Assembly (NCBI GenBank): GCA_019359245.1
Contig: JAHHHR010000012.1
Coordinates: forward strand, 58,243-122,242
From: Nostoc desertorum CM1-VF14
GTDB taxonomy: Bacteria > Cyanobacteriota > Cyanobacteriia > Cyanobacteriales > Nostocaceae
Reading direction: 5' to 3'
Length of the DNA: 64,000 nt
In this document: positions 23,548 to 63,528 of the stretch, piece after piece
How positions within the stretch are numbered: position 1 is the stretch's first letter
Layout of the letters: the number at the start of each line of letters is the position of its first letter
The notes under the pieces: generated by a model
The model's database searches: none
What the model was told of the DNA's origin: nothing
Seen by the model: only the letters and a program-made list of their open reading frames with translations
Position numbers and translations under genes: made by a program

Positions 23548-25227
23548 TTAACTTGATAATACTCCATCAAAGTATCGATCAATTTCTGCCGTAAGCACTT
23601 CAAAGTCTACAGGCTTGGTTAAGTGGCATTTAAAACCAGACTTAAGCGCAAACTCCCTATCCTCTTGGCCACCGTAGCCAGTAAGCGCAATCAGAATTGA
23701 GCGAGTAAATTTGGAGTCTTTACTCAGTTCCCGTGCAACGGCGAATCCATCCATTTCGGGAAGTCCGATGTCACAAATAATCACATGAGGCTCAAGTTCC
23801 CTTGCAGTTTCTACCCCTGAAATTCCGTTATTGGCAATGAAAACTTCATGCCCGAAGTACTCAAGCACTGCTTTTAATGTTATGGCTGAATCCTCGTTAT
23901 CTTCGATGACTAAAATCTTCAACGATTTTTTAGCCGCTTCTATAATCTCTGAGCCGTTATCCCAAGCTGTAATCTCTTCGCATACAGGGAGAGTGACTTT
24001 GAATTCTGCTCCCAAATTGATCCCTCTACTTGAGGCTTCAACATTACCACCATGAAGTTCCACAAGACTTTTTACTACCGATAATCCCAAACCTAGCCCA
24101 CCCCTCGAACGGTCTAAACTGCGATCAGCCTGGGTAAACGGCTCGAATAGTTCTGGTAAAATTGTCGGGTCTATCCCTATGCCTGAGTCTTTTACAGATA
24201 AAGCTGCTACACTGCCTGAGCCATTTTCACCTGGAATAAATGAGATATCCACCCAGATCATCCCATCTGGCTTGGAAAACTTTAAGGCGTTATCAAGAAG
24301 GTTTCCAAAGACTTGGAAGAATCGCGTCGGGTCAACATAAGCCCACAGAGGCGTGTTTGGTAGGTCTTGTACTACATTAAGGTTCGATTTCTTTATTGCT
24401 TGTGCATGGTCATTGAGACTCTGGCGAACCAATTCCACCAGATTAACCTTCTCCAGGTTTAATGAAATCTTCCCATAGGTGATGGACGATACATCAAGTA
24501 ACTCATCAATCAATTTCGAGAGGTGTTTAATCTGGTGCTGCATCTTTAAAACTGTTTCTCCGACTACACCAGTCTCGCCTAGCTTCAACTTGAGAAGCTG
24601 AACCCCATTTGAGATGGGAGCAACGGGATTTCTCAACTCGTGAGCTAGCATCGCAATAAATTTGTCTTTCAGGGCGTTTTGGTTCGTAAGTTTCTGAAAA
24701 AGTTGAACGTTTGCGATCGCTACTGCCGTAGTGTCGGTCAAAGTCTCAAGCAATTCTATCTCTTCGGGTGTGGCTCGGTGTGGTGTACTCCAGTAGGCTC
24801 CGATCGCACCGAGTGGATCAGAAATCCGTATCGGAACCATCACTAAACTCTTGACAAAAGTTACTTTATAAGCATCAAGAGGAATTCGCGCATCCTGATA
24901 AATGTCTTCAATCACGGCTGCTTGTTTATTGAGCATTGCCCAACCGGAGATGCAAGACTTGAGCGGAAAACGCATACCTTTCCAAAGTGGCCCGATGGCG
25001 TTTTCATCGACATAGTGGCAACATTCACCATCCCGCAGTACAAAAGTTACTCCATCAGCATTAGTTAGATCGCGAGCAGCCAAACGCACAATCTCAATAA
25101 TTTCCTCAATAGTCCGTACACAAGCCAAATCCTTCACGACCAAAAGCAGCCTATTGTAAGACGGAATACTATAGCTCTGATGTGAATTTTGTGCTTCAGA
25201 GATGGAGCCTTGTAATATATTTTTCAT
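23548..25227 (-). CDS. Hybrid sensor histidine kinase (GAF - HisKA - HATPase_c - receiver)
   Basis: 559 aa with H-box AHELRNP, G-boxes DSGIGI / GGLGLGLS, and a C-terminal REC domain (VIEDNEDS ... DIGLPEMDG ... LTGY ... K). Confidence 0.9.
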   Translation of the reverse strand: MKNILQGSISEAQNSHQSYSIPSYNRLLLVVKDLACVRTIEEIIEIVRLAARDLTNADGVTFVLRDGECCHYVDENAIGPLWKGMRFPLKSCISGWAMLNKQAAVIEDIYQDARIPLDAYKVTFVKSLVMVPIRISDPLGAIGAYWSTPHRATPEEIELLETLTDTTAVAIANVQLFQKLTNQNALKDKFIAMLAHELRNPVAPISNGVQLLKLKLGETGVVGETVLKMQHQIKHLSKLIDELLDVSSITYGKISLNLEKVNLVELVRQSLNDHAQAIKKSNLNVVQDLPNTPLWAYVDPTRFFQVFGNLLDNALKFSKPDGMIWVDISFIPGENGSGSVAALSVKDSGIGIDPTILPELFEPFTQADRSLDRSRGGLGLGLSVVKSLVELHGGNVEASSRGINLGAEFKVTLPVCEEITAWDNGSEIIEAAKKSLKILVIEDNEDSAITLKAVLEYFGHEVFIANNGISGVETARELEPHVIICDIGLPEMDGFAVARELSKDSKFTRSILIALTGYGGQEDREFALKSGFKCHLTKPVDFEVLTAEIDRYFDGVLSS

Positions 25228-25411
25228 AATAAACTCCGAAAAAAGGGATATCTGTATAAAAACTCAGGTAAAGCGGTTAGGTTTTAGCCGACACCTACTC
25301 TTAATCGTAATTTTAACTTTGATATTATTAGTACGTCTTGTTATTGCATTTTTTGCTTCTATGTTTATGGGTATAAATACTTTTAATCCAGCTCAGTAAA
25401 TATTCTGAATT

Positions 25412-25508
25412 TTCTTATAGAGTTACCCCACAGGCTTTTTATTCCCCCAACCCACCTTAAAAAGCTACGGTGTACACACAATTCTTTTAGAGTTACCCCA
25501 CAGGCTTT
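25412..25508. repeat. Two direct copies of a 27-nt motif (TTCTTWTAGAGTTACCCCACAGGCTTT) with a 70-bp period
   Basis: Copies at 25412-25438 and 25482-25508, one mismatch, immediately upstream of the IS982-like remnant. Confidence 0.5.
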
Positions 25509-25995
25509 GATCCCCGCAATCCCCTTTTTAAGCAGGGCTGTTTCATTGATTGGAGAGCGTCGCAGCACTTCTCGGATGCATCTATCGGAGGTAATGACGA
25601 TTGCATTAGCGAAGCTTACCGAAGGTATCGCTTTTCATGGTTCAGGCTGCCGAACATTCAAAGAGTTTTATACCCTGCATGTACTCCCTAGTTGGCGTGG
25701 CGCCTTCCCGAATCTAGTCAGCTACAGCAGATTCATTGAATTGATGCCGTGGTACTTGATGCTTTTGCCTTGTTTTTTACATACACGCATAAGTTAAATT
25801 ACAGAAATTAGTTTTATTGATTCTACACCAATAGAAGTTTGTCATTGATGTCGGGCACACGCACACAAGGTATTTAAAGGATTAGTCAAATGGGGGAAAA
25901 ATTCGGTGGGTTAGCATTTTGGTTTTAAACTTCATTTAATTATTAACGACTCTGGGGAATTTCAACTTACTGCTGCAAATGTTGATGACCGTCAG
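25507..25995 (+). mobile_element. IS982-family transposase pseudogene (three in-frame stops, 3' truncated)
   Basis: Single-frame translation gives ..SEVMTIALA..FHGSGCRTFKEFY...FPNLVSYSRFIELMPW..*..ISFIDSTPIEVCH*..AHKVFKGL..GKNSVG*HFGFKLHLIINDSGE...ANVDDRQP. In-frame stops are at 25795, 25846 and 25911. The homology ends abruptly at the stop of the neighbouring gene. Confidence 0.75.
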
Positions 25996-25996
25996 C

Positions 25997-27934
25997 CTAT
26001 TTTTTTTTCAGAGTGTTATCTAAAATCGAACCAGCTTTCCATATAGGAGCACCTCGTTCGTATGCACCAATATCAGGTGCATTACCCACAAAATTTTCTG
26101 TAATTCCGGGAATCATCACCCCAGCATCCACGGCTGGAGAGTTTGACTGTAAGGTAAAGTCGGGAATAGATTGGGAGGCTTCTGTAGGAGGTTGAGAAAA
26201 CTTAGGATTTTTATTGATAAACAAGTTATTGGATTGTTTATTGGCAGCTATAGTTTTAGATACCGCAAAAATATTATTACGCGTTTCAATTGAACCTCCA
26301 CCCGTAACCACATCTCCCATAAAAGTATTATTAAATACTCGCTCGTATCCCCGAGGACTACCTACCACTAAGTTATGGTTGTCCTTTCCTCCATTTAAAT
26401 TCCAGACTACATTATGGTGAATGGTGCTGTTAAATGTTTCGATGTCTAAATAAATACCACGAGTTCCCCAGAATGGACTAAAAGCTTGGGCATCCCGAAT
26501 CCAGTTATGATGAATCGAACCACCTTCTAAATTAACGTGGCAGCAAATATAAATAGCACCCAAGTCAGTACTGAGCATACCAAACTGAGAAATGTCATTG
26601 TAGGCAATTTCAATGTTACGACCATCTGTACCTGCGGTATGCCAATCAATATTAATTGCGTCACGACCAGCACGATAGATTGTGTTATGAGTAATTTTAT
26701 GACCATTGCCATTGATGCGGACAGGAGCCGCATAGGACACCATGTAATTACTATTGATAATAATATTATTGGTTACTGTGTGATTGCTACCTTCTAGCAG
26801 AACACCATTACCAGAACTCCATTCGATTATTGAGTTTTTTAATGTATGACTGTTTCCACGTAATTGAATTCCAGTATCATGGGCATGAGAAGTTACAATC
26901 AAAGCATTATCAGAATTAGGGGCTTGTTCTGACTGGGGTAGGGGTGGCAGAGTCATGTGGTGGGACACATATTTAGCCCGAATACCATCAATCACTATAT
27001 TAATGCTGCGATCGCTCGTGGTAATTGTGTTAGCAAATAGGTTTAAATTACGTAAAGAGATATAAGAACGATCGCTTAAATCAAAAGCAAAGTTCCGCTG
27101 TTTTACTTCTACGTTACTTGGGAGCTTACTGTCAGGCGACCAGAGGTAAAGAATTCGACTTTTATAGTCGTAAAACCATTCTCCTGGACTATCAAGTAAT
27201 TCTAATTTGCCAAACAGATAAAACCAAAATCCACCCCTATCCCAAGGAGCACTCATTTGAGCAGTTAACTTTCCTGCTGTTCCACCAGTGATTGTACCTG
27301 TGCGGGTGGTGTACCATTCATTAGTCCAGACTTTCGCACCAGTCCATCCCTCAGACAAATTAGGGATTTCTTTGTTTTCAATACTAGCTAATAGTCCTGC
27401 CTGACTTTTGACACCTCCACCTATGAGACTCGGACGCAGAAAATCTCGTTGTTTTTCATCCATGTTGGGAAAACGGGCTTCCGGCATCATTTCCCGATTG
27501 ACAAATAACTGATTGGCAAAGAAATTTATATCGCTATAGCCATTAACAGGTAAATTCACCTGGCTACGATAAACTGAGTTGCGATCTATAGCCCATCCTT
27601 CAACTAGTTCAGTCCCAGAAATAGTGACATTTTCATTTTTATAAGCTGCAAAGGTTATGGGTGCTTCTGCTGTGCCTGAAACCCCAGGACGAACTTGTTC
27701 ACGATAAATACCTGCTCTTAGCCAACAAGTTTCCCCTGGCTGAACAACAGTGGCACATTTTTGAATGGTTTTAAATGGGCGATCGATTGTTCCAGGATTT
27801 TTATCTGAACCAGTTGGTGCGATAATATAATAATTATTAGGTATTGCAATACTTTTACTGAAAAAAATTAAAATGCCAGGAGAAGTAGCAAAACAAAGAG
27901 AAAAGATTGAGTATTTCAATAGTTTCTTATTCAT
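25997..27934 (-). CDS. Secreted right-handed parallel beta-helix repeat protein (pectate-lyase/NosD-like fold); candidate polysaccharide lyase, hydrolase or epimerase
   Basis: 645 aa with a signal peptide and repeated N..I....G... rungs (HTVTNNIIINSN, HKITHNTIYRAGRDAINI, IHHNWI, IHHNVVWN). Confidence 0.8.
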   Translation of the reverse strand: MNKKLLKYSIFSLCFATSPGILIFFSKSIAIPNNYYIIAPTGSDKNPGTIDRPFKTIQKCATVVQPGETCWLRAGIYREQVRPGVSGTAEAPITFAAYKNENVTISGTELVEGWAIDRNSVYRSQVNLPVNGYSDINFFANQLFVNREMMPEARFPNMDEKQRDFLRPSLIGGGVKSQAGLLASIENKEIPNLSEGWTGAKVWTNEWYTTRTGTITGGTAGKLTAQMSAPWDRGGFWFYLFGKLELLDSPGEWFYDYKSRILYLWSPDSKLPSNVEVKQRNFAFDLSDRSYISLRNLNLFANTITTSDRSINIVIDGIRAKYVSHHMTLPPLPQSEQAPNSDNALIVTSHAHDTGIQLRGNSHTLKNSIIEWSSGNGVLLEGSNHTVTNNIIINSNYMVSYAAPVRINGNGHKITHNTIYRAGRDAINIDWHTAGTDGRNIEIAYNDISQFGMLSTDLGAIYICCHVNLEGGSIHHNWIRDAQAFSPFWGTRGIYLDIETFNSTIHHNVVWNLNGGKDNHNLVVGSPRGYERVFNNTFMGDVVTGGGSIETRNNIFAVSKTIAANKQSNNLFINKNPKFSQPPTEASQSIPDFTLQSNSPAVDAGVMIPGITENFVGNAPDIGAYERGAPIWKAGSILDNTLKKK

Positions 27935-29301
27935 GTGTCTAGATTGGGTATAAGGATTGATTTATTTTGAGTTTCCTTGCGTGCTCCTAAGTGCATTTGG
28001 TGTTCATGCCATGACAAGCCCAAAATAAAAGCAATAAAAATCATATATCCAGGTTCTTCCATTTGTGTAAAAATGCAACCCATGACAAATACACTTAAAA
28101 TAGTCACCTTTGCAATATCATTCCAGGCAAAAAATCGCCAAGTTAAAAATGCAAGATAAAAGTATGCACCTAATCCAAATAAACCTAGATCACCCCAAAT
28201 ACCAGACCAGCCAAAGACGGGGCTAAATAGACTAGACCCACTGGTTAGCCAAAAACCAGCGATAAAGTCCATAGAGTCTTGACCAATACCTGTTGTAGTG
28301 GCTCCTAAAGGACCTAAAAGTGCTGCATAATCTCTTAAAAACCATGCTCCAAGACGGCTGACTGTGTGTCCAGGACCTAGACCTACTAACCAGTTGAAAG
28401 GAGATTGGAAGTGAGCGAGAATCGTGCGAATGGAGTAGAACTTGGCATACCAAGCAAGACCATCTGAGCCATAGAGTTCGGGTCTAGCCCAAGCTGTATA
28501 GGCTTTAAATGCTTCTACATTTGTTACACACCAAACACCTATAATTACAATTAGTACTAGACCAAGAACAAGTTTTAAGGTTTTAACAATATTCTTTGAA
28601 TTGATTATAATTAACAGCCCCCATGCAACTCCATAAGCAAGTGCTAACTGTTTGGAGTCAGAAAATAAAAGTTGCCAGATAGCTGCCATTGCTACAGCAA
28701 TTTTGAGCGATAGGGGTTTATCTTTGCCAGATGTCCAAAAGTAAAGAGCAAACACAATTGAGACAGTAGCTGAAATATAGTTTCCAGCTCCTGATACAAA
28801 AAATACTCCCCCGCATCCGTCAGTTCCATCTAATCCAGTAGCATAGAGCTTGCCACTATCAATCAGGGGCTTTTGAGCGGCAGCTAACAAAAAATTAATC
28901 AGTACAGACCAGTACAATAATTTTTTCATTTTCCCGACAATTTGCTCGGTAATAGGGATGCATGTCATGGCAAGCAGAAACATATAAGGTTCTCCTAGCA
29001 TCATGAAACTGACGATCGCATTAATTAAACCCGCATTATTCCAAAGTGCGCTGGCGAGGGTGACTCCAAACAACACGATCAAAGCCAATATAAATGAAAA
29101 ACAAAGCGAAATTTGTTTAGGATCTTTAATTCGAGTTGTAGTTAAAGCAATTACACACACTGCTGGCACTAAGGCAAAATGGAATAGATTTAGCAGTGAA
29201 AAACGAATTGTTGTCGCTATAATACGCGAATAAAAAATACTACAAAATGTCAAAATAATCAAAAGTGAATTTTGGATATATCCTTTGTTTTTCATAGACA
29301 T
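27931..29301 (-). CDS. O-antigen ligase/polymerase-family polytopic membrane protein (Wzy-like)
   Basis: 456 aa with about 10-12 predicted helices and a large loop near GLGPGHTVSRLG. Its stop overlaps the downstream start by 4 nt. Confidence 0.65.
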   Translation of the reverse strand: MSMKNKGYIQNSLLIILTFCSIFYSRIIATTIRFSLLNLFHFALVPAVCVIALTTTRIKDPKQISLCFSFILALIVLFGVTLASALWNNAGLINAIVSFMMLGEPYMFLLAMTCIPITEQIVGKMKKLLYWSVLINFLLAAAQKPLIDSGKLYATGLDGTDGCGGVFFVSGAGNYISATVSIVFALYFWTSGKDKPLSLKIAVAMAAIWQLLFSDSKQLALAYGVAWGLLIIINSKNIVKTLKLVLGLVLIVIIGVWCVTNVEAFKAYTAWARPELYGSDGLAWYAKFYSIRTILAHFQSPFNWLVGLGPGHTVSRLGAWFLRDYAALLGPLGATTTGIGQDSMDFIAGFWLTSGSSLFSPVFGWSGIWGDLGLFGLGAYFYLAFLTWRFFAWNDIAKVTILSVFVMGCIFTQMEEPGYMIFIAFILGLSWHEHQMHLGARKETQNKSILIPNLDT

Positions 29302-29530
29302 CTAGCAGTGTTATCTTATGAAGTATAAGTTTATATCCTAGTGTAGTGCAGCCGAGAAAGTACTGACAATCAAAAAATAGCTACAAAAAATAGAACTTCA
29401 ATCTAGTTTAATCCAAATAAAAATTTATATGTTGGGTTACGAGTTTTTACCTTGAAAAAATTAGGTGGCTAGCTATTTTTGACGATTTTTTTATTAGATA
29501 TTGGCTTTGAATATCGGTGTAATGCAGAAA

Positions 29531-30790: not shown

Positions 30791-30982
30791 AATATTAACA
30801 TCCACAGAGAATATACACTTTTAGTCTTACAATCAAACTTATGTTGGTAGTGTCATGAAGGGAAGGGTTTTTCCGCAGTGGAACGCTTTTTTGGAGGCAG
30901 ACCTCACCTACCGTTCAGCATACTACCCTGATCTTCATATCCAAATTGCAAAAATATTGACAATCTAGATAACTCCAAATTT

Positions 30983-33465: not shown

Positions 33466-33528
33466 CTCATATCTCCCAATAAATTGATTTGATATCCCTA
33501 CGACTACTTAAATCATGCTTATTTCTGT

Positions 33529-46932: not shown

Positions 46933-47042
46933 TTTAGTTGGCTTCTTGTAGGTATTGAATAGCTATGAACGAATGCAAAACTATGCAAATAATTATGGAA
47001 TATTCGATCTCCGAAAATCGAGATAATCTCGATCATTGCACA

Positions 47043-48222: not shown

Positions 48223-51200
48223 TTAGGCAGCTTTCCACCGGCCAATTTCACCGCCGTAGAGGCTGGCATAGTAAAGATTTCCGTCAAGTCCCGTCTCCAT
48301 GTCAATGATATAGGGTAAGTTGTCAAACACTTGAGTAGACTTTACAGTTCCATTTGGATTAAAGAATGTTGTATATATAGTTCCCAATCCAACATCGTTG
48401 TAGAACAATGCACCATTATAAATTGCGGGATAGGAGTTCCCAGTATAAAAGTCACCCATGATTAGGGCAGTAGTTGGCAGCCCATCAGAGTTCTGGCTGG
48501 CATCATGGTTGCGAGTTAGCAATGGAGAAACTACTGTCTGTCCGCTGTTATAGAACGCTTGCGCCTGAGGTAGAGTGCTATACCCTGCATTTTGTGGGGA
48601 ACCTTCAAAGTAAGGCCACCCAAAATTACTGCCCCTCGTTGCTACGTTAATTTCCTCCCATGTGTTCCAACCTACTTCACCGAGATAGGGAGTTCCTGTT
48701 GTTGGGTTGATAGTAAAGCGGAAGGAATTTCGCAATCCGAGGCTCCACACCTTGGAGCGGTTGCTGTCCAGATTACCGTTGGAGAATGGATTGTCGGCAT
48801 ATCCTTGTCCGGTGAGAGGATTAATCCGCAGCAGTTTGCCAGATAAATTATCGACATCTTGGACGCGAGTTGATCGCCAGTCAACTGAGTTGTAGGAAGT
48901 TCCATCCCCAACGGTGACATACAACGATCCATCGAGCCCAAATTGAACTTGTCCGATACTATGGCTGTCACTGTCACCTGCCAAGTAGTCTCTGATATTG
49001 TTGTTGTGATCAAAGTTGGTATCTGTTGCCGAATAGTCTCTCCCAATATTACTAGTGTCCGCATCTTCAATTAGTGCTGGCGGTGCTGTAATAGTTGAAC
49101 CATTGACAATTCCAGAGGGAAGGGTGGTGAAGCTAACCGTACTATCCACATCGGGACGGCTGGTGTATTGCCAGAGACTATTCTTGCCGAGCAATACCAC
49201 TTCACTGTTAGGCAATGCAGTGGTGTAGTTTGTGGCGGGGTTAGCCGTCACTCTGATCAGACGGGCGGGACGATTCCCAAGTCCATCTGGACCTGCTAAC
49301 CCTGTGTTATTTTGGGTTTCTGGGGGGTCATAGGTAAATAGTAGGTAGACATAGTCCCGACCTTGATTTTGACCAAAGGACGGATCGACAGCCAGCCCTA
49401 GTAAGCCGCGATCAGCCACATTATTGACCTGCGCTGAAATATCTATAAAGGGTGTAGGCCGAAGCCCTAAGGACACTGGTAATGGAGCAGTGCTCGTGTT
49501 GATCAGCACCCCAACGTCGCTGGTGTGCCAGTTGGCAGTAGCAATATCGGCTTTACCGTCATTATTAAAGTCAGCTACATTCAGACTAAAGGGAGTCCGG
49601 CCCGTAATGTAAGTGCTGGGAGCGGCAAAGGTGCCATTGCCGTTTCCAAGCAACACACTAATCGTATTACCTCCAGGATTATCGTTGTTGGGATAGTTGC
49701 CCGCTGTATTGGCCGTAAGCAAATCGAGTATGCCATCACCATTGATGTCACCGATCGCCACACCCTTGGGCACGCTACCCGTTGCATAGCTCGCGACTGG
49801 TGCAAAGCCACCGATGCCGTTACCTAGCAACACCCCTACCGTGTCAGCGTATTCGTTCGCGGCAACGAGATCGATCCGACCATCGCCATTTAGATCGGCT
49901 GCGCGGAGTGAGTGGGGACCATCGCCAATAATATAATTCGATGTACTACCAAAGATCCCAGCACCAGAATTAAGTATGACACTTATTGCATCAGTACCCT
50001 GGTTGGCAACTGCTATATCGGCTCTGCCATCGCCGTTGAAATCGGCAAGCTGAAGAGAGTGTGGTGCACTACCAACAACGTAGTCAGCGAAGTTCCCGAA
50101 CGTGCCGTTACCATTATTTCGCATGATGCGGACGATCGTGCTCCCCCATCCAGTCACGGCGATGTCGATGTCACCATCCCCATCCACATCTGCGGCTACT
50201 GCTTCATGGGCCCCAGTTGATCCCGCATAGCTGACACTAGGCGCAAAGGTTCCATTACCGTTACCGAGTAGTACATTGACATTGTTGGAGGTCTGGCTGG
50301 CAGTAAATAAGTCAAGCCTGCCGTCACCATTGAAGTCTGCCGCAAACACTGATTTCGGCTCAACTCCAACTCCAAAGTTGACAGCAGGGGCAAAGGTGCC
50401 ATTACCGTTGCCGAGTAGGACACTGACGTTGTTACTGCCAGCATTGGCGGTCGCTAAGTCAAGCCTGCCGTCCCCGTTAAAATCGGCTGAAACGATTCCA
50501 TGGGTGTGAGTACCAGTGGCATACTGCTGAACGGGAGCGAATCTCACGGTATTATTTGGCTGTACGAAAGTTCTGACTACCCCACCTTTTTCGGCGATGA
50601 ACATTAATTGACCATCTGGTGACCAATCGAATGTAGTAGGCTGGTTCAAACCGCCAACTATCTGCTCCCGTGGTAAGGTCAATAGTCGAGGTGGTGGTGG
50701 GGTGTATGTACCTATGACCAATTGGGCATCTGCCCAGTCGGCATGATCCGAACCAAAACCATTGCCCCCATCGTTTACCACTAGCGTTAGGGTTTGTTTG
50801 CCTGTGACATCGACATTCGCTAACTGCGTATCACTGAGTCCTGTCATGACTCCACTGTCAAAGAGGACTACTCCATCTGCCAAAATCCGGAAGACTACGG
50901 AGCCATTTCTACCGACTTCGTCATCTACTCCAACATAGGCGAAGAAACTATTGTAAGCTCCTGCAAGATTGTAGGTGATCTGAGAGCCAGCATGGACTCC
51001 CAGTCCTTTAGCATAGGTCACACCATTGAGTGTCAATGTGTTACCATCAGCTGCTTCTTGTTCACCATTTGAGCGATCTCTTTCGACTGGTCCATAGCCG
51101 TTGGTTGATGAGGCAAAAGGGAGATCGCTCAGGTACGTTAGAGTTGGCGCAGATCCGTCGCGAATTGAGATCGAAGAAGTGCGAGATGGTCCGAGATCGG

Positions 51201-54201: not shown

Positions 54202-54234
54202 GTCGAAGTAAGATTGAGCAGCTAAAATTTTTAT

Positions 54235-55494
54235 TTATACTTTTTGTTGACCAAAAGTAAAATACAGTTGTTGTTGCTCAACTTGAGACGTGGTTTTATC
54301 TGAGGTATTTTCAATTAAAAATAGCCCCTTGCGTCTTAGGGATTGTTCAATAAGAACCTCCTTTAAAATATCTTCAGAAAACTGTTCTTGCTGGACAAGA
54401 AGCTCTCCTAACTTATGGTTAGTAGCACTTTGTAACGCTAGAATTTTATCCAGAAACTGCTTTCTTACAAGCTTTTTTTCTAATACAAGGCTACCAAATT
54501 GAATATTTTGGTTCTTCAGATAAAACTTTAACTGTTTTAAAGATATTAATTGCTTTGACACTAAAATTTCACCAATTTTTAAATTTGGGTTTAAACTTTG
54601 CTCTAGTAAAGCTTGTCTGATATCTTCTCTAGTTACAATATTTTGTCGAACAAAAATTTCACCAATTTTTTCAGGCGTAAAATCTAAATTTTCTATATCT
54701 GTTCCTAATAAAAGATTCTTTGTTTGATTAGAATTATGCTTATGGGTGATTGCCAACTCCTTAATAGCTAAATAGATAAAATATGGAATTGTTGAAGCGT
54801 AACGCTTCCAAAGACGAAGTGGCTCTTGTGTTAACCGATACAACCATTCCAAACATAATTGTTGAACCCAATGGGGAGCGCGTGGAGTAATCCCTGCGTA
54901 CATAGAGAATACTGCACCTACACCAACCATTACTGCTTGAATCTTTCCGTGATAGTGGGACATCCAAATTTCCTGTTTAGGACATCCCAAACAAACAAAA
55001 ATAATTCCCGCACCACTTTGATTAATTTCTTCAATTAATTCTGTATTATGACTTTTGTCAATCTCATCAATAGGAACAAAGGGAATGGATTTCATTCCTG
55101 CAACTTTTAAAATCGGATATTCTTCGTCTAGTTTTCGCTTAATTTTGTCTAAAATCTCTTGTGTAGAGCCAAGAAAATAAACTGGCTTTCCAGTGATTTC
55201 AGCTAAAGCACACAAATTAAGGAAAACATCCATTCCTGATACTTGATTTTGGTGATAAATCCCCAATTGGCGTAACATCAACACTAAAGGCTTGCCATCA
55301 GGGGTAACCAAATCTGCTTTATTTAAAATTTTTCTAAATGAAAAGTTCCAATGGGCTTCCATAAGCATATGAACATTGGCTAAATAGACAACCTTACTAG
55401 CCCTCATATTTGCCCAGCGCAAAATTAACATAATCTGCTCATCCAAAGGCAAACACGTAATAGGAACATTAAACAAACCTTTCTTGGGTATCAT
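54235..55494 (-). CDS. WecB/TagA/CpsF-family (GT26) glycosyltransferase fused to four C-terminal MshEN/T2SSE_N-like 24-residue repeats
   Basis: 419 aa. The N-terminal 250 aa or so carry the GT26 pattern (V..ANVH......PDG.P.V......FLG.....GCPKQE.W...........GVGA.F). The C-terminal repeats (nt about 54343-54670) are KIGEIFVRQNIVTREDIRQALLEQ, KIGEILVSKQLISLKQLKFYLKNQ, QFGSLVLEKKLVRKQFLDKILALQ and KLGELLVQQEQFSEDILKEVLIEQ. Confidence 0.85.
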   Translation of the reverse strand: MIPKKGLFNVPITCLPLDEQIMLILRWANMRASKVVYLANVHMLMEAHWNFSFRKILNKADLVTPDGKPLVLMLRQLGIYHQNQVSGMDVFLNLCALAEITGKPVYFLGSTQEILDKIKRKLDEEYPILKVAGMKSIPFVPIDEIDKSHNTELIEEINQSGAGIIFVCLGCPKQEIWMSHYHGKIQAVMVGVGAVFSMYAGITPRAPHWVQQLCLEWLYRLTQEPLRLWKRYASTIPYFIYLAIKELAITHKHNSNQTKNLLLGTDIENLDFTPEKIGEIFVRQNIVTREDIRQALLEQSLNPNLKIGEILVSKQLISLKQLKFYLKNQNIQFGSLVLEKKLVRKQFLDKILALQSATNHKLGELLVQQEQFSEDILKEVLIEQSLRRKGLFLIENTSDKTTSQVEQQQLYFTFGQQKV

Positions 55495-56255: not shown

Positions 56256-56736
56256 TCAGGTTAGCTATTTTGCTAACACTATTACAACAAGCGATCGCAG
56301 CACTGGGATAGTGATTGATGGTATTCAGGCTAAGTATGTTTCCCACCACATGGCTCTGCCACCCCTACCGAAGTCAGAAAAAGCTTATGAATCTGATAAT
56401 GCTTTATTTTTGGCTTCTCATACTCACGATACTGGCATTCAGTTACGTGGTACTAGTCATACATTCAAAAACTCTACTATCGAATGGAGTTCTGGTAATG
56501 GCGTACTGTTAGAAGATAAAAACCATACAATAACCAACAATATTATTGCCAGCAGCAATTACATGGCGTCCTATGCGGCTCCTGTCCGTATCAATGGCAA
56601 TGGTCATAAAATTACTCATAACACTATCTTTCGCGCTGGTCGTGACGCAATTAATATTGATTGGCATACCGCTAGTACAGACGGTCGTAATATCGAAATC
56701 GCTTACAATGATACTGCTTTACTAACTTCTGTATAA
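56256..56736 (+). pseudogene. Internal fragment of a beta-helix gene paralogous to 25997..27934, in inverted orientation
   Basis: The translation ..FANTITTSDRSTGIVIDGIQAKYVSHHMALPPLP...HKITHNTIFRAGRDAINIDWHTA.TDGRNIEIAYND aligns with residues about 300-450 of the 645-aa protein. Stops lie immediately upstream and homology is lost after AYND. Nucleotide identity is roughly 80-85% by eye. Confidence 0.8.
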
Positions 56737-57015
56737 AAATCCTTGAGCAAACTTTGCTCTTGAATAGTCATAGTCTATCCAAAGAACTTCAAGATAACTC
56801 TTTCAATCGCTTCGTAAAGGCAATTGCCTCTAAAGGTTCCAATGCGAATCTGCAAAGATATAACACTTAGAATGCTCATGCATAGCCGATTCATCTATAG
56901 CTATTAAACTAGGCTCGATTTAGCCTACAGGCTACTCCTAGATAGATTAGATGTTATTTATTAAATTCTATTGACGAATCAAAGCTTAGAGTACACCCTA
57001 AAAAAATAATTGAAT

Positions 57016-59193
57016 ATGCATATTTTAATAGCAGCTTTACATAGACCTATTCAACCAACTGGTATTTGCAGACATGCTGCTAATCTAGCCCACTGCTTAG
57101 CAGAAAATAAAGAAGTTACCAGAATCAGTTTAGTTATCGGATCTTGGCAACAGCATTATTTTAAAGCTGCTTTTTCTCTTGATTCTGAAAAAATTAAACT
57201 AATCATTGTCAACATCAAAAACAGTTCCGTTGTCAGGAATAGTTGGTTTCTCAGTGGCTTACCTCAATTAGCAAATAATCTCGGTTCAGATATTGTTCAT
57301 CTTTCCTTTCCTTTTCCTTTTTTTAGAGCTAGTTTTAACGCTTATGTAGTTACTACAATTCATGATTTATACCCCTACGAATGTCCTGAAAACTTTGGTT
57401 TTCCTCAAGCTTGGTTTAATCGTTTATTTTTTAAGCAATGCATTAGCAATAGCGATGGACTTGCTTGTGTATCTCAAGTTACATTAGAAAAACTAAAAGT
57501 TTATTTTCCTCATCTTGATCCACATAAAGAAATCGATGTGATTTATAATTATGTTGATTTTGAAAAGTTAGAACCTAAAATACCTCAACAACTACCGAAA
57601 AACAGTTCATTTTTATTGTCTGTTGCCCAGCATCGTCAAAATAAAAATTTAGATTTATTGATTAAAGCTTATTCTTGGTTATTAGATAACAAAAAATTAA
57701 ATCCAGATGCTAAGTTAGTGATTGTCGGTACTTCTGGGCCTGAAACTCAAAATATTAAGAATTTAATTAGCGATTTATCTTTAGAGACTAAAGTAGTTTT
57801 GCTAGCAGCCATCGATGATTCAGAATTATGCTGGCTATATCAAAATTGCCAAGCTTTTGTAATCCCATCCTCTACAGAAGGTTTTTGCTTGCCCCTAGCT
57901 GAAGCGTTGTATTGGAGTAATATAATTGTATGCTCTGACATACCAATTTTTAGAGAAATCGGTAGTTATAAATGTACTTATTTTTCTTTAGAAAATGATG
58001 CTGTTAATAATCTCGGTCAAGCCATTATTCAATCTATCAGTAGGTCTAGTTTATCAAGCTATACTAATGTATCTCGTTTTGAGAAGTCAAATATAGCCAA
58101 GCAGTATTTAAATTTATATTCTAGATTAAATCTAGAAGAAGAAACCCGATTTTTGAAAAATATACAAGAGACTGAAAAACTCACTAAGGTAAAATTTACT
58201 ATTACTACCTTAGATGAAAGAATTATCATACAAATTCCTGAGAAATTGAGCGTATTTGAAGCACTAAATTTAAAGCAGATTTGCCAAGAAATAACCCAAA
58301 GAGAGGCTATTTTCAAAGAAATAATTATTGACTTCTACCAAACAATTTTTATGGACAGTAGCGGTTTAGGAGCTTTGGTTAGTATTTGGAAAACTGCTCA
58401 AGCAAAGGGAATTATCGTGCTTTTCAAGAATGTTACACCCCAGGTTTGGTCAGTGTTAAGCCTGACAGGGCTAGATACAGTTTTTTCTATTAAATCTAGT
58501 TTTGAAACACATTTTATAGCAACAGATTATGCCTTGGATAAGGAGAGGGCTTTTCGCATGAACAAAGACCAGCTCCCAGCAACTCATCTTTCTGTAAAAT
58601 CTTGGATTAAAAGATTTATAGATGTTATTGGTGCTTTAGTTGGTTTAGTTATAATAGGAATTGTGTTTGTTCCGGTTGTAATTGCTATTCAAATCGATGA
58701 TCCTGGGCCTATTTTCTTTAGCCAAGTTCGTTGTGGTTGGATGGGTAAGAAGTTCAGAATTTGGAAGTTTCGCTCTATGTGTATAGATGCAGAAGCGAAA
58801 AAATCCCAAGTTAAAAATCAAGTACAGGGTGCTTTTTTTAAGAATGAACAAGACCCCAGGGTTACGAGAGTCGGTAAATTTATTCGGCGAACCAGTATTG
58901 ATGAACTGCCACAATTTTGGAATGTGTTGAAAGGAGATATGAGTTTAGTTGGGACGAGACCACCCACACCTGATGAAGTAGAACATTATGAAGTACCACA
59001 ATGGCAGCGTTTAGACATCAAACCAGGAATGACGGGAGAATGGCAAGTAAATGGTCGATCTAGAGTCCGTAGTTTTGAAGATGTAATTCGCATGGATTTG
59101 TTCTATCAACAGAACTGGAGTCTGATGTACGATTTGAAGTTGATTGTTAAAACTTTCGCCGTTCTGTTTACTAAAAATAGTGGCGCTTACTAA
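57016..59193 (+). CDS. Triple fusion: GT4 glycosyltransferase - STAS (SpoIIAA-like) domain - polyprenyl-phosphate sugar phosphotransferase (WbaP/EpsL-type bacterial sugar transferase)
   Basis: One continuous ORF; I prefer the ATG at 57016 to the TTG at 57010.
- GT4: VIPSSTEGFCLPLAEAL.
- STAS, nt about 58186-58500, with FMDSSGLGAL.
- TM helix plus sugar-transferase core, nt about 58602-59190: DDPGPIFFSQVRCG..GK.F.IWKFRSM, RVT.VG.F.R..S.DELPQ..NVL.G.MSLVG.RP, ending ..GAY. Confidence 0.85.
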   Translation: MHILIAALHRPIQPTGICRHAANLAHCLAENKEVTRISLVIGSWQQHYFKAAFSLDSEKIKLIIVNIKNSSVVRNSWFLSGLPQLANNLGSDIVHLSFPFPFFRASFNAYVVTTIHDLYPYECPENFGFPQAWFNRLFFKQCISNSDGLACVSQVTLEKLKVYFPHLDPHKEIDVIYNYVDFEKLEPKIPQQLPKNSSFLLSVAQHRQNKNLDLLIKAYSWLLDNKKLNPDAKLVIVGTSGPETQNIKNLISDLSLETKVVLLAAIDDSELCWLYQNCQAFVIPSSTEGFCLPLAEALYWSNIIVCSDIPIFREIGSYKCTYFSLENDAVNNLGQAIIQSISRSSLSSYTNVSRFEKSNIAKQYLNLYSRLNLEEETRFLKNIQETEKLTKVKFTITTLDERIIIQIPEKLSVFEALNLKQICQEITQREAIFKEIIIDFYQTIFMDSSGLGALVSIWKTAQAKGIIVLFKNVTPQVWSVLSLTGLDTVFSIKSSFETHFIATDYALDKERAFRMNKDQLPATHLSVKSWIKRFIDVIGALVGLVIIGIVFVPVVIAIQIDDPGPIFFSQVRCGWMGKKFRIWKFRSMCIDAEAKKSQVKNQVQGAFFKNEQDPRVTRVGKFIRRTSIDELPQFWNVLKGDMSLVGTRPPTPDEVEHYEVPQWQRLDIKPGMTGEWQVNGRSRVRSFEDVIRMDLFYQQNWSLMYDLKLIVKTFAVLFTKNSGAY

Positions 59194-59229
59194 GGCATTC
59201 TTCTGGCACTGTTGGGTGGAACGATTGTA

Positions 59230-59746
59230 CATACGCACTCGAAATTAGCTGCCACAGCCGATGAACATGGCGGTTTGATTTGGGCAATTGATGCCTTACA
59301 GCTAGAAGGTCACGGGAATTTGTTATATGTGTTATATAAAGTATTAAAAACTACAACTTTTATGTGATAAATACGGGACTAACTTATTGCACTGTTATGA
59401 TATTCCTGGCTTACTACTAGATAACCTGAAGATGGAAGCTATGTTTAAACATTTGCGTCGTCACCAGCGGCGAATTAGGGGATGCAAATCTACTGCCGAA
59501 TTACGTGATTTTGGGCAATATCAAGTCCTCTTTCTTGCTGAAAGCGAAAAACAGCTACTTGAGCAAATTCAGCAAGTACCTGTAGCTCAGTATAAAGTTC
59601 AACGTCGTAGATTAGCTTTGTCCGAACTCCTCGCCAACGCAAACATCGCCTTCACCATCAGCCAATTACCACAATACAAGCTTTGGTTAACTAACATACG
59701 GAACTTCTCTCTGTGCTTGATTCTCAAGCTCTCACATACCAATTAG
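59230..59746 (+). mobile_element. Degenerate transposase remnant (family uncertain, possibly ISKra4-like)
   Basis: The fragments ..HGGLIWAIDALQLEGHGNLLYVLYKVL.. and ..YDIPGLLLDNLKMEAMFKHLRRHQRRIRGCKSTAELRDFGQYQVLFLAESEKQLLEQI.. lie in different frames with stops. The pattern recalls cyanobacterial transposases; the family call is from memory only. Confidence 0.4.
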
Positions 59747-59750
59747 ATAG

Positions 59751-60491
59751 CTAGGGTTCGGAGTGCTTCGATCTAAAGTCAGCGATCGCGCTACTCCTCC
59801 CAATATTAACCAACTCCCCATCAACAACCGCAATCCCCCATTGCGGAAACTTCGCCAGCAATTTCTTGATCGCAATCTGCAACGCCGGATCATCCCAACA
59901 CTCCTGTTGAGGTCGCATATCTGACCTCGCTACAATCGCTTCATGCGACCATTTCTCAGCACTGGGGACAGGCGCGGCGGAACTTTTACCCTCATGATCT
60001 GCTTTGACTTCTACACCTGAAGCTGAATTTTCAGTCTTTAACGAAGTGGGGAGGGTTGCTTGTGCTTGGGCAAGTTCAAGCAAATCAGTTAAATTTTGAG
60101 CGACGGACGCGGCGGAATCAGTACCTTCATGACAGTCCCTCGAGTCAATACCACAATCTTGGTTTTCAGCCAACAAAGAAGCGGGATTACTTTGTGCAGC
60201 ATCCACAAGCATTAACGTCATGCAGTCCATTGCCACAGGCAAGTCAACTTCATTCTCTGACACGCTTACAACAATCTGAGGCGACGCGACCCCCAAGGGA
60301 GCGTGAGCCGTCTCTTCCTCACGCGAATTTCCTGTAAGCGTATCAGAGATACATCTCACAAACTCATCAAATGAGTTTGTGAGATGTTCCTGAGCAGTTC
60401 GTAAGGTTTCCTGAAACCCCTGCTCTGACTTATTTTGGACTAAAATAGATGCTTCATATAAAGCACGCATTCCTTCAGAGCCAGCATTCAT
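59751..60491 (-). CDS. Hypothetical acidic, low-complexity protein
   Basis: 246-aa ORF that looks more GC-rich than the flanking island genes. No family recognised. Confidence 0.45.
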   Translation of the reverse strand: MNAGSEGMRALYEASILVQNKSEQGFQETLRTAQEHLTNSFDEFVRCISDTLTGNSREEETAHAPLGVASPQIVVSVSENEVDLPVAMDCMTLMLVDAAQSNPASLLAENQDCGIDSRDCHEGTDSAASVAQNLTDLLELAQAQATLPTSLKTENSASGVEVKADHEGKSSAAPVPSAEKWSHEAIVARSDMRPQQECWDDPALQIAIKKLLAKFPQWGIAVVDGELVNIGRSSAIADFRSKHSEP

Positions 60492-61392: not shown

Positions 61393-63528
61393 ATGAAAAC
61401 AAGTAAATCTCATCAAATAGAGTCAATTAATCAAAGTTACCAAAATTATGAAGCTGCGGAAGGCGGATTAAATTTAATTGATTTAAAAGACAACATTATC
61501 CGGCAGATTCATATCGTATTAGGAATAACTATTTGTATGTCTTCTTTAGCTTTTTTTAGCGCACTCAGGCGTACTCCTACTTATCAAGCTAGTTTTGAAA
61601 TACTGTCTGAGCGAGTAAGTATTGAAACAAAAGTTACTTCTTCTGTTTCACAATCCAAAGAAACCACAGAAGACATTGGGGCTGTCACTTTAGACGAAGT
61701 ACAAATAAAAAACTTAAAAAGTCCTGATATCATTACGCCTGTCGTTACAAAACTAAAATATAAGTATCCAGGAATTAATAATGACTCAATTACTAGCACA
61801 CTAACCTTAAAAGCTGATGAGAAAAAAGGCATTTTAGAAGTAGCTTACCAAAACAGCGATCGCCAACAAGTTAAAGATGTTTTAGAAGCGTTAACAAAAG
61901 CATATTTGAACTATAGTTTAAAAAGAAGACAGTCCGGAGTAAATCGAGGACTAGATTTTTTAAACCAGCAAATTCCCAGAATACAGACTAAGGTTAATAT
62001 ACTTAATTATAAAATCCAACAATTAAGAAAAAAATATAATATTATCAACCCACAAATTCAGGGTTCTCAAATATCTCAAAGGATAGATAGTTATATTATT
62101 AAGCAAGTTGAATATAAATCACAACTAGAAAAAACTCAAAAGCTAGCTGGTCTTGCTAAAAAAGAACTCAATGAGCGGTCTACTACATCAACTACAGCTA
62201 TGCTAATTGGTACTTCCCGATACAATGCATTATTGGAAGATATACAAAAAATAGATAGTGAAATTGCCAAAAAATCCGTCATTTTTTCAGATCAAAGCAT
62301 CCAAATTCAAAATTTACAAGAACAAAGACGATCCATAGTTTCTCTAATAAATCTAGAAATTGCCACTATCCAACAGAAAATTGACAATCAGATTAGGTTA
62401 GAAAAAGAACAGGTACAAGCTATTAATGAAGAAATAGCAAATATCCAACAAAATTTCCAAGAATGGTTAGAGGCTACAGGACAATACGAAAATATCGAAC
62501 GAGAAATGACAATCACAGTAAAACAGCTGAATGAACTTTTAATTCAAAGAGAAGCCCTACGACTGGAATCTGCTCAAAAAGAAGCTCCTTGGAAGTTACT
62601 TACTCTCGTAGGAGAACCCAACACAAATGCTGCTAGTATTGCTAATTATATAGTATTGGGTACCCTCTTAGGGTTGTTGATTGGTGTAGGAGCAGCATTG
62701 CTCTTAGAGAGCTACCAAAATCTAGTTTACAATCCTAATCAAATTCAAGAAATTACTAATCAACCAATTTTAGGAATTATTCCCTTTAACCGCTATTACA
62801 AAAAATTGTATTTTCTGAAAAAATTCAATTCAATTATTCCACCATATTCAAAAACAGAGAAGTCAAAGAATAAAGATTATCATAAAAACTTTACTTTCAA
62901 TAATATGCTCTTCCCACCTGTGGAAGCTTATGCTTTTTTAGGATCTAACTTGGGTTTGTTTGAAAAGGATAAAAATATTCATTCTTTGATTATTACTTCC
63001 ACGGTATCTGGTGAAGGAAAATCTACTGTAGCGCTTAATTTAGCTAAAGTAATAGCTGCGACAGGAATCAGAGTCTTAGTTGTTGATGTTGATGTGCGTA
63101 ATCCAGATAATTTAACTAGCGCTATGGCATTAAATTCAATCAAAGGTCTAAGTGATATTTTATCGTCTGATAGTTTAAGTACTGAGATAAATGTCAAGAA
63201 CGTTATTCAAAAATCTTTTTTAGGTGAGAATTTATTTATTTTGTCATCGAGAAATGCAAGTAGTGATGTTAATACTAGTTGCTTACTAGCTTCTTCTAAA
63301 ATGCGAGACTTGATGAAAGAATTACAACAGATATTTGAGTTAGTAATCTACGATGTTGCTTCTATTGTTGATTATGCCGATGTAAATTTGTTAGCTAATC
63401 ATGCTGATGGAGTAGTTTTGGTAACTGGTTTAGGTAAATTACCAGGTTTAAAGCTCAAAGAAGCTGTTTCTCAATTAAATATATCTAAAACACCTGTTTT
63501 GGGTGTAGTAATTAATAATTTGGTCTAA
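61393..63528 (+). CDS. Polysaccharide co-polymerase (Wzz/GumC/Wzc-like, PCP-2a architecture) with a C-terminal P-loop kinase-like domain
   Basis: 711 aa: TM1 (IVLGITICMSSLAFF), a long coiled-coil periplasmic region, TM2 (IVLGTLLGLLIGVGAALLL), then STVSGEGKST (Walker A), VLVVDVDVRNP (Walker A') and ELVIYDVAS. There is no C-terminal Tyr cluster. Confidence 0.85.
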   Translation: MKTSKSHQIESINQSYQNYEAAEGGLNLIDLKDNIIRQIHIVLGITICMSSLAFFSALRRTPTYQASFEILSERVSIETKVTSSVSQSKETTEDIGAVTLDEVQIKNLKSPDIITPVVTKLKYKYPGINNDSITSTLTLKADEKKGILEVAYQNSDRQQVKDVLEALTKAYLNYSLKRRQSGVNRGLDFLNQQIPRIQTKVNILNYKIQQLRKKYNIINPQIQGSQISQRIDSYIIKQVEYKSQLEKTQKLAGLAKKELNERSTTSTTAMLIGTSRYNALLEDIQKIDSEIAKKSVIFSDQSIQIQNLQEQRRSIVSLINLEIATIQQKIDNQIRLEKEQVQAINEEIANIQQNFQEWLEATGQYENIEREMTITVKQLNELLIQREALRLESAQKEAPWKLLTLVGEPNTNAASIANYIVLGTLLGLLIGVGAALLLESYQNLVYNPNQIQEITNQPILGIIPFNRYYKKLYFLKKFNSIIPPYSKTEKSKNKDYHKNFTFNNMLFPPVEAYAFLGSNLGLFEKDKNIHSLIITSTVSGEGKSTVALNLAKVIAATGIRVLVVDVDVRNPDNLTSAMALNSIKGLSDILSSDSLSTEINVKNVIQKSFLGENLFILSSRNASSDVNTSCLLASSKMRDLMKELQQIFELVIYDVASIVDYADVNLLANHADGVVLVTGLGKLPGLKLKEAVSQLNISKTPVLGVVINNLV

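Follow-up and report, generated by a model that had tools for sequence, protein, structure and literature searches.

The window analysed here is a 64,000-nucleotide stretch of Nostoc desertorum CM1-VF14 (assembly GCA_019359245.1, contig JAHHHR010000012.1, positions 58,243 to 122,242). By its gene content, the region 25997–63528 of this window is a heteropolysaccharide biosynthesis cluster, and two of its enzymes, predicted to act at early lipid-linked steps, are fused to sensor-type domains. One is a GT26 glycosyltransferase (GT) that ends in a tandem of two MshEN_N modules, a predicted receptor for cyclic di-GMP (c-di-GMP). The other joins a GT4 domain, a STAS domain and a phosphoglycosyl transferase (PGT) in a single chain. 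With moderate confidence we favour a reading in which these two enzymes are gated by c-di-GMP and by a phospho-switch, respectively, the histidine kinase beside the cluster is an accidental neighbour, the co-polymerase is no tyrosine-phosphorylation switch, and the cluster as a whole is a mosaic. A preliminary description of this DNA had proposed that several signalling inputs converge on one polysaccharide island, namely a c-di-GMP receptor on a GT, a STAS module on the initiating transferase, a co-polymerase resembling a bacterial tyrosine kinase (BY-kinase) and an adjacent GAF hybrid histidine kinase. All four sets of domains are found where it placed them, by Pfam or NCBIfam and, for MshEN, by the NCBIfam model NF053729 and a family profile. 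As inputs, two of the four (the MshEN tandem and STAS) are credible and two (the co-polymerase and the kinase) are not. The tightly gated, condition-specific polymer that it envisaged may be the product.

The N-terminal part of the GT26 protein matches Glyco_tran_WecG (PF03808) at residues 60–232 with an E value of 2.2e-57 in Pfam. Members of this family normally add the second sugar onto a lipid-PP-linked primer. In the alignment with TagA of T. italicus, D66 corresponds to the catalytic base D65, and R220, R227 and R231 correspond to the appendage arginines R214, R221 and R224. The predicted structure of this part also matches TagA (Foldseek E 9e-12, TM-score 0.8 on the target). In TagA, the C-terminal appendage is needed for catalysis and for membrane binding (PMC6493773). 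An extension of ~170 residues beyond the TagA-like part holds the MshEN tandem, and the full-length predicted model has a low-confidence linker of ~25 residues between the GT26 appendage and the tandem.

An MshEN_N module consists of two 24-residue motifs and a spacer of ~5 residues, which together make a 53-residue unit. The extension contains four 24-residue repeats of this type, starting at residues 276, 306, 332 and 361 and reading KIG..Q, KIG..Q, QFG..Q and KLG..Q, with a 6-residue spacer between the first two and a 5-residue spacer between the last two. The NCBIfam model NF053729 ("c-di-GMP_motif, MshE-related") matches residues 276–329 over model positions 1–53 of 53, with 58.8 bits against a cut-off of 38 (E 3.4e-16). 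A profile built from 20 family members retrieves PilF (1e-12), PilB (7e-11) and Vibrio cholerae MshE (5HTL, 2.4e-6) from the PDB, and these matches fall exactly on the 53-residue binding modules of the three proteins. Homology of the C-terminal tandem to MshEN_N is thus established at the level of sequence.

The structure of MshE defines the ligand-contacting positions of the motif as Gly3, the hydrophobic residues at 17 and 21, and Gln24 (PMC5013675). All four repeats carry Gly3 and Gln24, and all have hydrophobic residues at positions 17 and 21 (Leu at both in three repeats; Ile and then Leu in the first repeat). Across 29 relatives of 57–93% identity, G278, G308, G334, G363, Q299 and Q329 are invariant, and hydrophobic positions 17 and 21 are conserved. 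Position 1 is K, K, Q and K in the four repeats. Lys at this position confers an affinity of 6 nM on PilF GSPII-B, and the consensus has been widened to R/K/L (PMC11731258). The AlphaFold 2 (AF2) model of the tandem consists of helical hairpins, with a predicted local distance difference test score of ~83–92 in the core. Binding of c-di-GMP by the tandem is plausible on these grounds. The predicted receptor module is conserved, exceeds the curated cut-off by 20 bits and keeps the ligand-contacting residues, so that this part of the preliminary description holds as a credible input.

A 2016 catalogue of MshEN architectures lists GT2-MshEN (NfrB), MshEN-GT2 and MshEN_N-AAA_31 (EpsG) and lacks GT26-(MshEN_N)2. 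Our literature searches found no paper characterising GT26-(MshEN_N)2 or a c-di-GMP link of a cyanobacterial GT26 enzyme, and those on hps genes and DUF4347 returned nothing relevant. A search with the protein returned thousands of relatives; the best 120 are all 394–443 residues long, their alignments cover at least 94% of the query, and those that are named are cyanobacterial. We compared 61 MshEN-positive loci, taking one genome per species, with some loci fetched separately. Of the 41 loci whose upstream sequence is long enough, 25 have a co-polymerase homolog directly upstream, mostly in divergent orientation; 22 of the 61 have an ABC exporter homolog downstream. Most of these loci have no PGT within 10 kb; in five loci other than the window a PGT lies directly upstream of the GT26-MshEN gene. 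Directly downstream, in every locus inspected (the window, L001, L003, L005 and L006), is a giant protein of 1.6–2.0 thousand residues with carbohydrate-binding and propeller domains. Its make-up varies, with DUF4347, NPCBM, FG-GAP and GSDH domains in the window and in strain FACHB-152, and CBM6, CBM35, malectin and Kelch domains in L001, L005 and L006. The conserved arrangement occurs in Pleurocapsales, Chroococcales and some Nostocales (Nostoc, Calothrix, Brunnivagina and Mastigocoleus). Judged by gene order, it is a conserved, unstudied type of cyanobacterial locus, and the silence of the literature may reflect that the named carrier strains are not standard models.

In the second enzyme, the preliminary description had correctly recognised the STAS and Bac_transf domains and had missed a complete GT4 domain in front of them. 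PGTs of the PglC type are recognised by a re-entrant helix, a KFR[ST]M motif and an Asp-Glu dyad. All three are present, at residues 530–558 (with a single hydrophobic segment at 540–558), 584–588 (KFRSM) and 629–630 (within DELPQ). When the STAS domain is compared with SpoIIAA and TM1442, its FMDSSGLG segment aligns with the same segment of SpoIIAA, including the site mutated in the 1TID structure. DSSGLG is invariant in five independent sequences (the window, Nostoc sp. XA013, Nostoc sp. UHCC 0251 and two metagenome contigs) while the surrounding STAS residues vary. The same intact 725-codon open reading frame (ORF) is present in all five, and dN/dS is 0.20–0.28 overall against three orthologs. 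By these three features the fusion gene is real, maintained, under purifying selection and no relic, and the intact frame in five independent sequences rules out an assembly error or a frameshift artefact.

A phospho-switch was shown in 2026 for the STAS-Bac_transf protein All4160 of Anabaena PCC 7120: phosphorylation of Ser74 by Alr3423 turns the protein off, and the REC-PP2C phosphatase HenR restores its activity (PMC13555669). STAS-Bac_transf proteins, including XssP of synechan synthesis in Synechocystis, are stated to be widespread in cyanobacteria (PMC13555669; PMC8205485). With its invariant DSSG serine and its homology to proteins of the All4160 type, the STAS domain on the initiating transferase is the second input from the preliminary description that we regard as credible.

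The STAS-PGT half of the fusion is 65–74% identical to 349-residue STAS-Bac_transf proteins found throughout the Nostocales. A set of 5.8 billion clustered proteins contains a single further cluster with all three domains, and the GT4 half otherwise has only stand-alone relatives of ~400 residues; none of the proteins in a library of 1.84 billion representatives matches both halves. The tri-domain fusion is confined to four closely related loci. Its junction is end to end: GT4 retains the usual C-terminal tail of its stand-alone orthologs, and STAS-PGT then begins near its usual N-terminus. The same design with other partners is present in the representative library, as GT26-STAS-PGT (600 residues) and Alg13/Alg14-like-STAS-PGT (673 and 717 residues). 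An undescribed design seems to recur here, with STAS as the middle domain of bifunctional enzymes that combine the next GT with the priming transferase. The stand-alone protein closest to the STAS-PGT half (74% identity) is encoded divergently beside a GT26 gene and a co-polymerase. Together with the existence of GT26-STAS-PGT fusions, this adjacency supports the view that PGT, the next transferase and GT26 belong together functionally.

The co-polymerase had been listed as a signalling input for its likeness to BY-kinases. Its Wzz and P-loop domains are indeed present, and its best NCBIfam matches are models of tyrosine autokinases; TIGR01007 reaches a score of 105.7, short of its cut-off of 108.05. 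Both Walker A (GEGKST at 540) and Walker A' (VDVDVR at 564) are conserved; in Walker B, the Asp of DxxP is retained and Ser/Ala/Cys replaces the Pro. The protein ends in ...PVLGVVINNLV, with no Tyr among the last 50 residues, and we found no Tyr-rich tail in another frame downstream. A C-terminal Tyr cluster is likewise absent from all 36 related co-polymerases of other cyanobacterial loci, 32 of which have no Tyr and four of which have one or two Tyr in the last 25 residues. Since these relatives also lack the tail, truncation is rejected as the explanation for its absence. Because the Tyr cluster is the defining feature of BY-kinases, we do not count the protein among them. An ATPase-type co-polymerase is the better description of this sequence, and there is no basis for treating it as a signal input.

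The soluble GAF hybrid histidine kinase at the other end of the cluster lies on the same strand as the cluster genes, 770 bp from the last of them. Its domains are as the preliminary description gave them, and so is the insertion sequence (IS) remnant in the gap: the ORF there encodes only the N-terminal ~94 residues of an IS982-family transposase, with 69–71% identity to annotated IS982 transposases on Nostoc plasmids by tblastn, and Pfam returned no match for the IS-remnant ORFs. The proposed input to the cluster did not hold up. In the closest available relative of the kinase locus (L089, 89% nucleotide identity), homology covers only 23566–25407 of the window, ending on the cluster side ~180 bp past the kinase gene, at the edge of the IS982 remnant, and on the other side within the last codons. 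The surroundings of L089 are unrelated on both sides, and no cluster genes occur near its kinase within 5 kb upstream or 10 kb downstream. The kinase has no DNA-binding output and no cognate regulator nearby. Since the adjacency is lineage-specific and coincides with an IS scar, we treat the kinase as an accidental neighbour and not as a demonstrable member of the cluster. Its GAF domain (residues ~38–172) contains a conserved ECCHYVDE stretch and has no relative in the PDB at E ≤ 0.01. UHCC 0251 (L009, 3621–5655) has another two-component neighbour than the window: beside its fusion gene lie a REC-PAS-HisKA-HATPase kinase and a stand-alone REC protein, in place of the co-polymerase.

The description of a single island also requires revision. 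The best DNA matches of the window are XA013 (96–98% nucleotide identity in the shared part) and UHCC 0251, and the right flank differs among these three near-identical strains. Synteny ends just after the fusion gene, at 59199 against XA013 (L010) and at 59194 against UHCC 0251, where a repeat begins. This repeat is present in eight plasmid records, at up to 10 places per record, where only hypothetical or HTH proteins are annotated. We take it to be mobile-element debris, and it may represent an undescribed mobile element. Beyond the fusion gene lie IS66 and other transposase genes in XA013 and the co-polymerase in the window. The GT26 gene of FACHB-152 and of a JGI contig (L001/L003) is divergent from an intact beta-helix gene, which is followed by a stand-alone GT4 gene. 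The window retains a pseudogene remnant of that beta-helix gene, 91–93% identical in nucleotides to its middle part in L001/L003, and XA013 retains a longer one. An intact paralog at the other end of the cluster, 30 kb away, is 80% identical to the L001/L003 gene, so that the beta-helix pair looks like a duplication or replacement followed by decay of one copy.

By these comparisons the heteropolysaccharide cluster is a mosaic, in which an old core (co-polymerase, GT26-MshEN, giant carbohydrate-binding protein and PglK/HepA-like ABC exporter) was remodelled next to IS debris. A Nostoc-specific module, comprising GT4, the beta-helix gene and STAS-PGT of the All4160 type, looks to have been inserted between the co-polymerase and GT26; we read the window in this way because the pairing of these two genes is a common cyanobacterial arrangement.

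Nineteen genes of the cluster run in one direction, from 55494 down to 25997, and the fusion gene and the co-polymerase gene form a divergent pair on the plus strand. In addition to the GT26 enzyme and the 1831-residue giant protein, the 19 genes encode two GT2 and four GT4 enzymes, two acyltransferases, a DegT aminotransferase, a GMC oxidoreductase, a fused ABC exporter, a polytopic membrane protein, three proteins without a family match and a beta-helix protein (Table 1). The ABC exporter gives full-length NCBIfam matches to PglK (296 bits), MsbA (286) and the heterocyst HepA family (263), all of them below the equivalog cut-offs. The beta-helix protein is probably a secreted glycanase or lyase. 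The polytopic protein, homologs of which are present in some related loci, is a candidate Wzy-type polymerase by its hydrophobic profile. The giant protein is carbohydrate-binding by its domains and probably extracellular. No obvious signal peptide was seen in it, and the adjacent ABC exporter is one candidate for its export route. Its gene has a GC content of 44–51%, compared with 34–40% in the surroundings. The stretch 44937–47993 (the 363-residue protein, a GT2 and the 316-residue protein) is conserved in the XA013 locus. Promoter and terminator scans were uninformative on operons, the former being at chance level (23 found, 25 expected) and the latter mildly above it (10 found, 4.9 expected).

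Table 1 Features of the cluster and its flanks (positions in the window; parentheses after domain names give residues)
Feature	Position	Strand	Basis
Soluble hybrid histidine kinase, GAF-HisKA-HATPase_c-REC	23548..25227	-	Pfam; no transmembrane segment
IS982-family transposase remnant, N-terminal ~94 aa only	25507..25797	+	tblastn
Pel9A-like right-handed beta-helix protein, 645 aa, N-terminal hydrophobic segment	25997..27934	-	Pfam, NCBIfam
Polytopic membrane protein, 456 aa, multiple hydrophobic segments	27931..29301	-	no Pfam/NCBIfam match
GT4	29531–30805	-	Pfam
Acyltransferase_3	30983–32113	-	Pfam
GT4	32344–33465	-	Pfam
Unknown protein, 341 aa	33529–34554	-	no Pfam, NCBIfam or PDB match
GMC oxidoreductase	34771–36447	-	Pfam
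Acyltransferase_3	36532–37617	-	Pfam
DegT aminotransferase	37686–38996	-	Pfam
GT4	39076–40287	-	Pfam
GT2	40313–41368	-	Pfam
GT4	41464–42621	-	Pfam
ABC exporter, fused transmembrane and nucleotide-binding domains (TMD-NBD), PglK/MsbA/HepA type, 601 aa	42786..44591	-	Pfam, NCBIfam
Unknown protein, 363 aa	44937–46028	-	no Pfam, NCBIfam or PDB match
GT2	46021–46932	-	Pfam
Unknown protein, 316 aa	47043–47993	-	no Pfam, NCBIfam or PDB match
Giant protein, 1831 aa: DUF4347, Calx-beta, 3x NPCBM, FG-GAP repeats, GSDH propeller	48223..53718	-	Pfam
GT26 (WecG/TagA/CpsF) glycosyltransferase with C-terminal tandem of two MshEN_N, 419 aa	54235..55494	-	Pfam, TagA alignment, Foldseek
(MshEN_N)2 tandem (276–384), predicted c-di-GMP receptor	54343..54669	-	NCBIfam NF053729, profile vs PDB
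Pseudogene remnant of ancestral beta-helix gene, 444 bp in frame, 141-aa ORF	56269..56712	+	Pfam Beta_helix
GT4-STAS-PGT three-domain enzyme, 725 aa	57010/57016..59193	+	Pfam, NCBIfam
GT4 domain (about 1–370; Pfam 18–344), EX7E at 288–296	in 57016..59193	+	Pfam
STAS domain (399–497; Pfam 401–499)	58210–58506	+	PF01740 1e-11, TIGR00377
DSSG serine 448, predicted phospho-acceptor	codon 58357–58359	+	SpoIIAA alignment
Monotopic PGT, Bac_transf (532–718; Pfam 534–720)	58609–59169	+	PF02397 8.4e-66
Multi-copy Nostoc repeat	59200..59760	.	blastn
Unknown ORF, 246 aa	59751..60491	-	no Pfam, NCBIfam or PDB match
PCP-2a-like polysaccharide co-polymerase (PCP): Wzz, two transmembrane segments, P-loop ATPase	61393..63528	+	Pfam, NCBIfam

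The left 23 kb of the window carry unrelated functions and no signalling genes. An inositol and uronate catabolic set at 596–10632 (sugar-binding protein, myo-inositol oxygenase, LacI regulator, glucuronate isomerase, short-chain dehydrogenase and LarA-like protein) looks unusual for a cyanobacterium and is unrelated to the polysaccharide finding. A copper/heavy-metal efflux module at 17589–21059 comprises a P1B-type ATPase with an HMA domain, a cupredoxin-like protein and a MerR regulator.

In the mechanism that we propose, the STAS and MshEN domains would be post-translational gates on the enzymes of the early lipid-linked steps, a role that their conserved residues make credible. Following All4160, Alr3423 and HenR, an RsbW-type kinase would phosphorylate Ser448 and a PP2C/SpoIIE-type phosphatase would remove the phosphate, with the genes for both lying elsewhere in the genome; phosphorylation would turn priming off, and unphosphorylated Ser448 would permit priming by the PGT, with the fused GT4 channelling the primer. 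By analogy with NfrB, c-di-GMP bound to one or both MshEN_N modules would free or position the GT26 appendage, so that the active site is completed at the membrane. Output of polymer would then need the permissive phospho-state plus c-di-GMP. The remaining transferases and the modifying enzymes would complete the repeat unit, the PglK/HepA-like ABC exporter, the candidate polymerase and the co-polymerase would carry out translocation and polymerisation, and the beta-helix and giant lectin-like proteins would act outside the cell. A more specific form of this mechanism is possible, and we hold it tentatively: GT26-(MshEN_N)2 may be the c-di-GMP effector of an uncharacterised, widespread cyanobacterial exopolysaccharide machine, acting through the appendage on the second lipid-linked step, and may form, with the STAS phospho-switch, a two-signal AND gate on consecutive steps of one polymer.

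Several observations weigh against the gating of two early enzymes: (i) Pfam T2SSE_N does not match the C-terminal region of the GT26 protein even at E ≤ 10, which is why homology was shown through NCBIfam and the family profile. (ii) The turn residue at motif position 10 is N, Q, K and E in the four repeats, compared with Gly/Ala/Ser in the published relaxed motif, and the published expression fails on all four repeats because of this position. Across the family, position 10 is mostly N or K, with G in 4 of 79 repeats; with this position unconstrained, the relaxed 24-mer fits three of the four repeats, and the remaining mismatch of the fourth is at a core position. (iii) The best Foldseek matches of the tandem in the PDB are c-di-GMP-bound PilF GSPII-B and MshE, with a root-mean-square deviation of ~1 Å over 55 columns and a probability of 0.91–1.0, but their E values of 0.4–4 are not significant. 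(iv) Thr37 of TagA, the proposed orienter of ManNAc, is replaced by Leu at residue 38 amid columns that are invariant in the family, so that the donor sugar of this subfamily may be other than UDP-ManNAc. (v) Either GT26 or the fused GT4 could be the second-acting transferase. (vi) Among the Pfam-scanned ORFs of the window there is no diguanylate cyclase and no cognate partner-switch kinase (RsbW/SpoIIAB type) or PP2C/SpoIIE phosphatase, and an Rfam search of the whole window for a c-di-GMP riboswitch matched nothing. The missing kinase and phosphatase are weak evidence, because the genes for the All4160 kinase and phosphatase are also unlinked in Anabaena (PMC13555669). (vii) Of the Wzx/Wzy pathway, the window contains the PCP and, as its sole Wzy candidate, the polytopic protein without a family match; no Wzx flippase and no outer-membrane polysaccharide exporter (OPX) were found in the 64 kb. 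The PglK/HepA-like ABC exporter could, by its family, act as a flippase. (viii) In a search of sequencing runs, the locus was found in metagenomic DNA runs only and in no RNA run. (ix) From the pseudogene and the IS debris, decay of parts of the cluster is possible.

Some of these points would also fit sensor-like domains that are not switches. The MshEN tandem could be a degenerate helical module through which the protein oligomerises or docks, to the co-polymerase ATPase for example, and STAS a fixed linker or scaffold between GT4 and PGT. The failure of the published motif at position 10 in all four repeats would suit such a module, the list of Wang et al. includes MshEN-like proteins that have no binding motif or fail to bind, neither a kinase nor a phosphatase is encoded close by, and the position of STAS between GT and PGT in several unrelated fusions suits a structural role as well. 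However, the ligand-contacting residues are the most conserved positions of the tandem, the cut-off of a curated c-di-GMP-motif model is exceeded by a wide margin, the DSSGLG segment is invariant amid varying STAS residues, and the equivalent serine is a working switch in the architecturally equivalent homolog All4160. We regard purely structural domains as unlikely. It is quite unlikely, in our judgement, that rearrangement has merely juxtaposed two pathways, with the fusion priming another polymer (for example an All4160-like heterocyst envelope polysaccharide), the GT26-MshEN core using a primer made elsewhere, and no convergence between them. This would account for the IS and repeat debris that flanks the fusion gene, for the restriction of the tri-domain fusion to four closely related loci, for the scarcity of PGT genes within 10 kb of MshEN-positive GT26 genes, and for the likeness of the STAS-PGT half to stand-alone proteins scattered in Nostocales, of which the copy in PCC 7524 has no polysaccharide neighbours. 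It is harder to reconcile with the 74%-identical STAS-PGT relative that also lies divergently beside GT26 and a co-polymerase, with the single-chain GT26-STAS-PGT fusions, with the five loci that have a PGT directly upstream of GT26-MshEN, and with the GT4 partner, which is the ancestral neighbour of this GT26 gene.

The scheme of four independent inputs, in which tyrosine autophosphorylation of the co-polymerase and transcriptional control by the GAF kinase join c-di-GMP and STAS on one coherent island, we consider very improbable. All four domain sets exist, the kinase is close to the cluster and on its strand, the co-polymerase keeps Walker A and A', and two-component neighbours recur, as beside the fusion gene in UHCC 0251. 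Nevertheless, the co-polymerase and its 36 relatives lack the Tyr cluster, and the co-polymerase has lost the DxxP proline and stays below the TIGR01007 cut-off. The kinase, for its part, is separated from the cluster by the IS982 remnant, has neither a DNA-binding output nor a nearby cognate regulator, and shares with L089 the stretch 23566–25407 and no cluster genes.

To our knowledge, few c-di-GMP receptors have been recognised in cyanobacteria (a PilZ cellulose synthase, CdgR and PilB-type ATPases). GT26 with a conserved MshEN tandem offers a concrete candidate effector through which the messenger could reach heteropolysaccharide synthesis, and with the GT-STAS-PGT design the principle of All4160, in which a priming enzyme is itself under direct phospho-control, would extend to bifunctional enzymes. 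Should the two gates act on one polymer, the committed steps of glycan assembly would be under two-signal control within one compact natural locus. Otherwise, it illustrates that a "BY-kinase-like" label or an adjacent kinase gene does not by itself make a signalling input. Each of the two credible inputs belongs to a known regulatory kind or is a variant of one; as far as we have found, the GT26-(MshEN_N)2 architecture, its conserved locus and the single-chain GT-STAS-PGT theme are undescribed.

Among characterised systems, Escherichia coli NfrB, which is activated by c-di-GMP from DgcJ, is likewise an exopolysaccharide glycosyltransferase with a C-terminal MshEN-type module, and the NfrB models PRK11234 and PRK15489 match the GT26 protein weakly and exactly on the MshEN module. 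Whereas NfrB is a processive, membrane-integral GT2 synthase with a full MshEN (N and C subdomains), the window enzyme is predicted to be a peripheral GT26 acting on a lipid-linked intermediate, with two MshEN_N and no MshEN_C and with no adjacent diguanylate cyclase found. Methylobacillus EpsG shares the wiring of MshEN_N into a Wzc-type polysaccharide machine, but there the module sits on the AAA_31 co-polymerase ATPase, and here on a GT26 encoded divergently from the ATPase-bearing co-polymerase. With TagA/TarA and WecG, the GT26 enzyme shares the GT-E fold, the catalytic Asp and the three appendage arginines; it differs from TagA in the Leu at the Thr37 position and in the C-terminal extension of 170 residues that carries the tandem. 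The co-polymerase resembles the BY-kinases of the PCP-2a class (E. coli Wzc and Synechocystis Sll0923) in its Wzz periplasmic domain between two transmembrane segments and its cytoplasmic P-loop with Walker A/A', and differs from them in its C-terminus, its Walker B motif and its score below the TIGR01007 cut-off. All4160 has the same order of STAS and Bac_transf domains and the same DSSG serine, whereas the window protein has a complete GT4 in front. This likeness is one of architecture and homology, in a family with several paralogs per genome, and nothing ties the polymer of the window to heterocysts.

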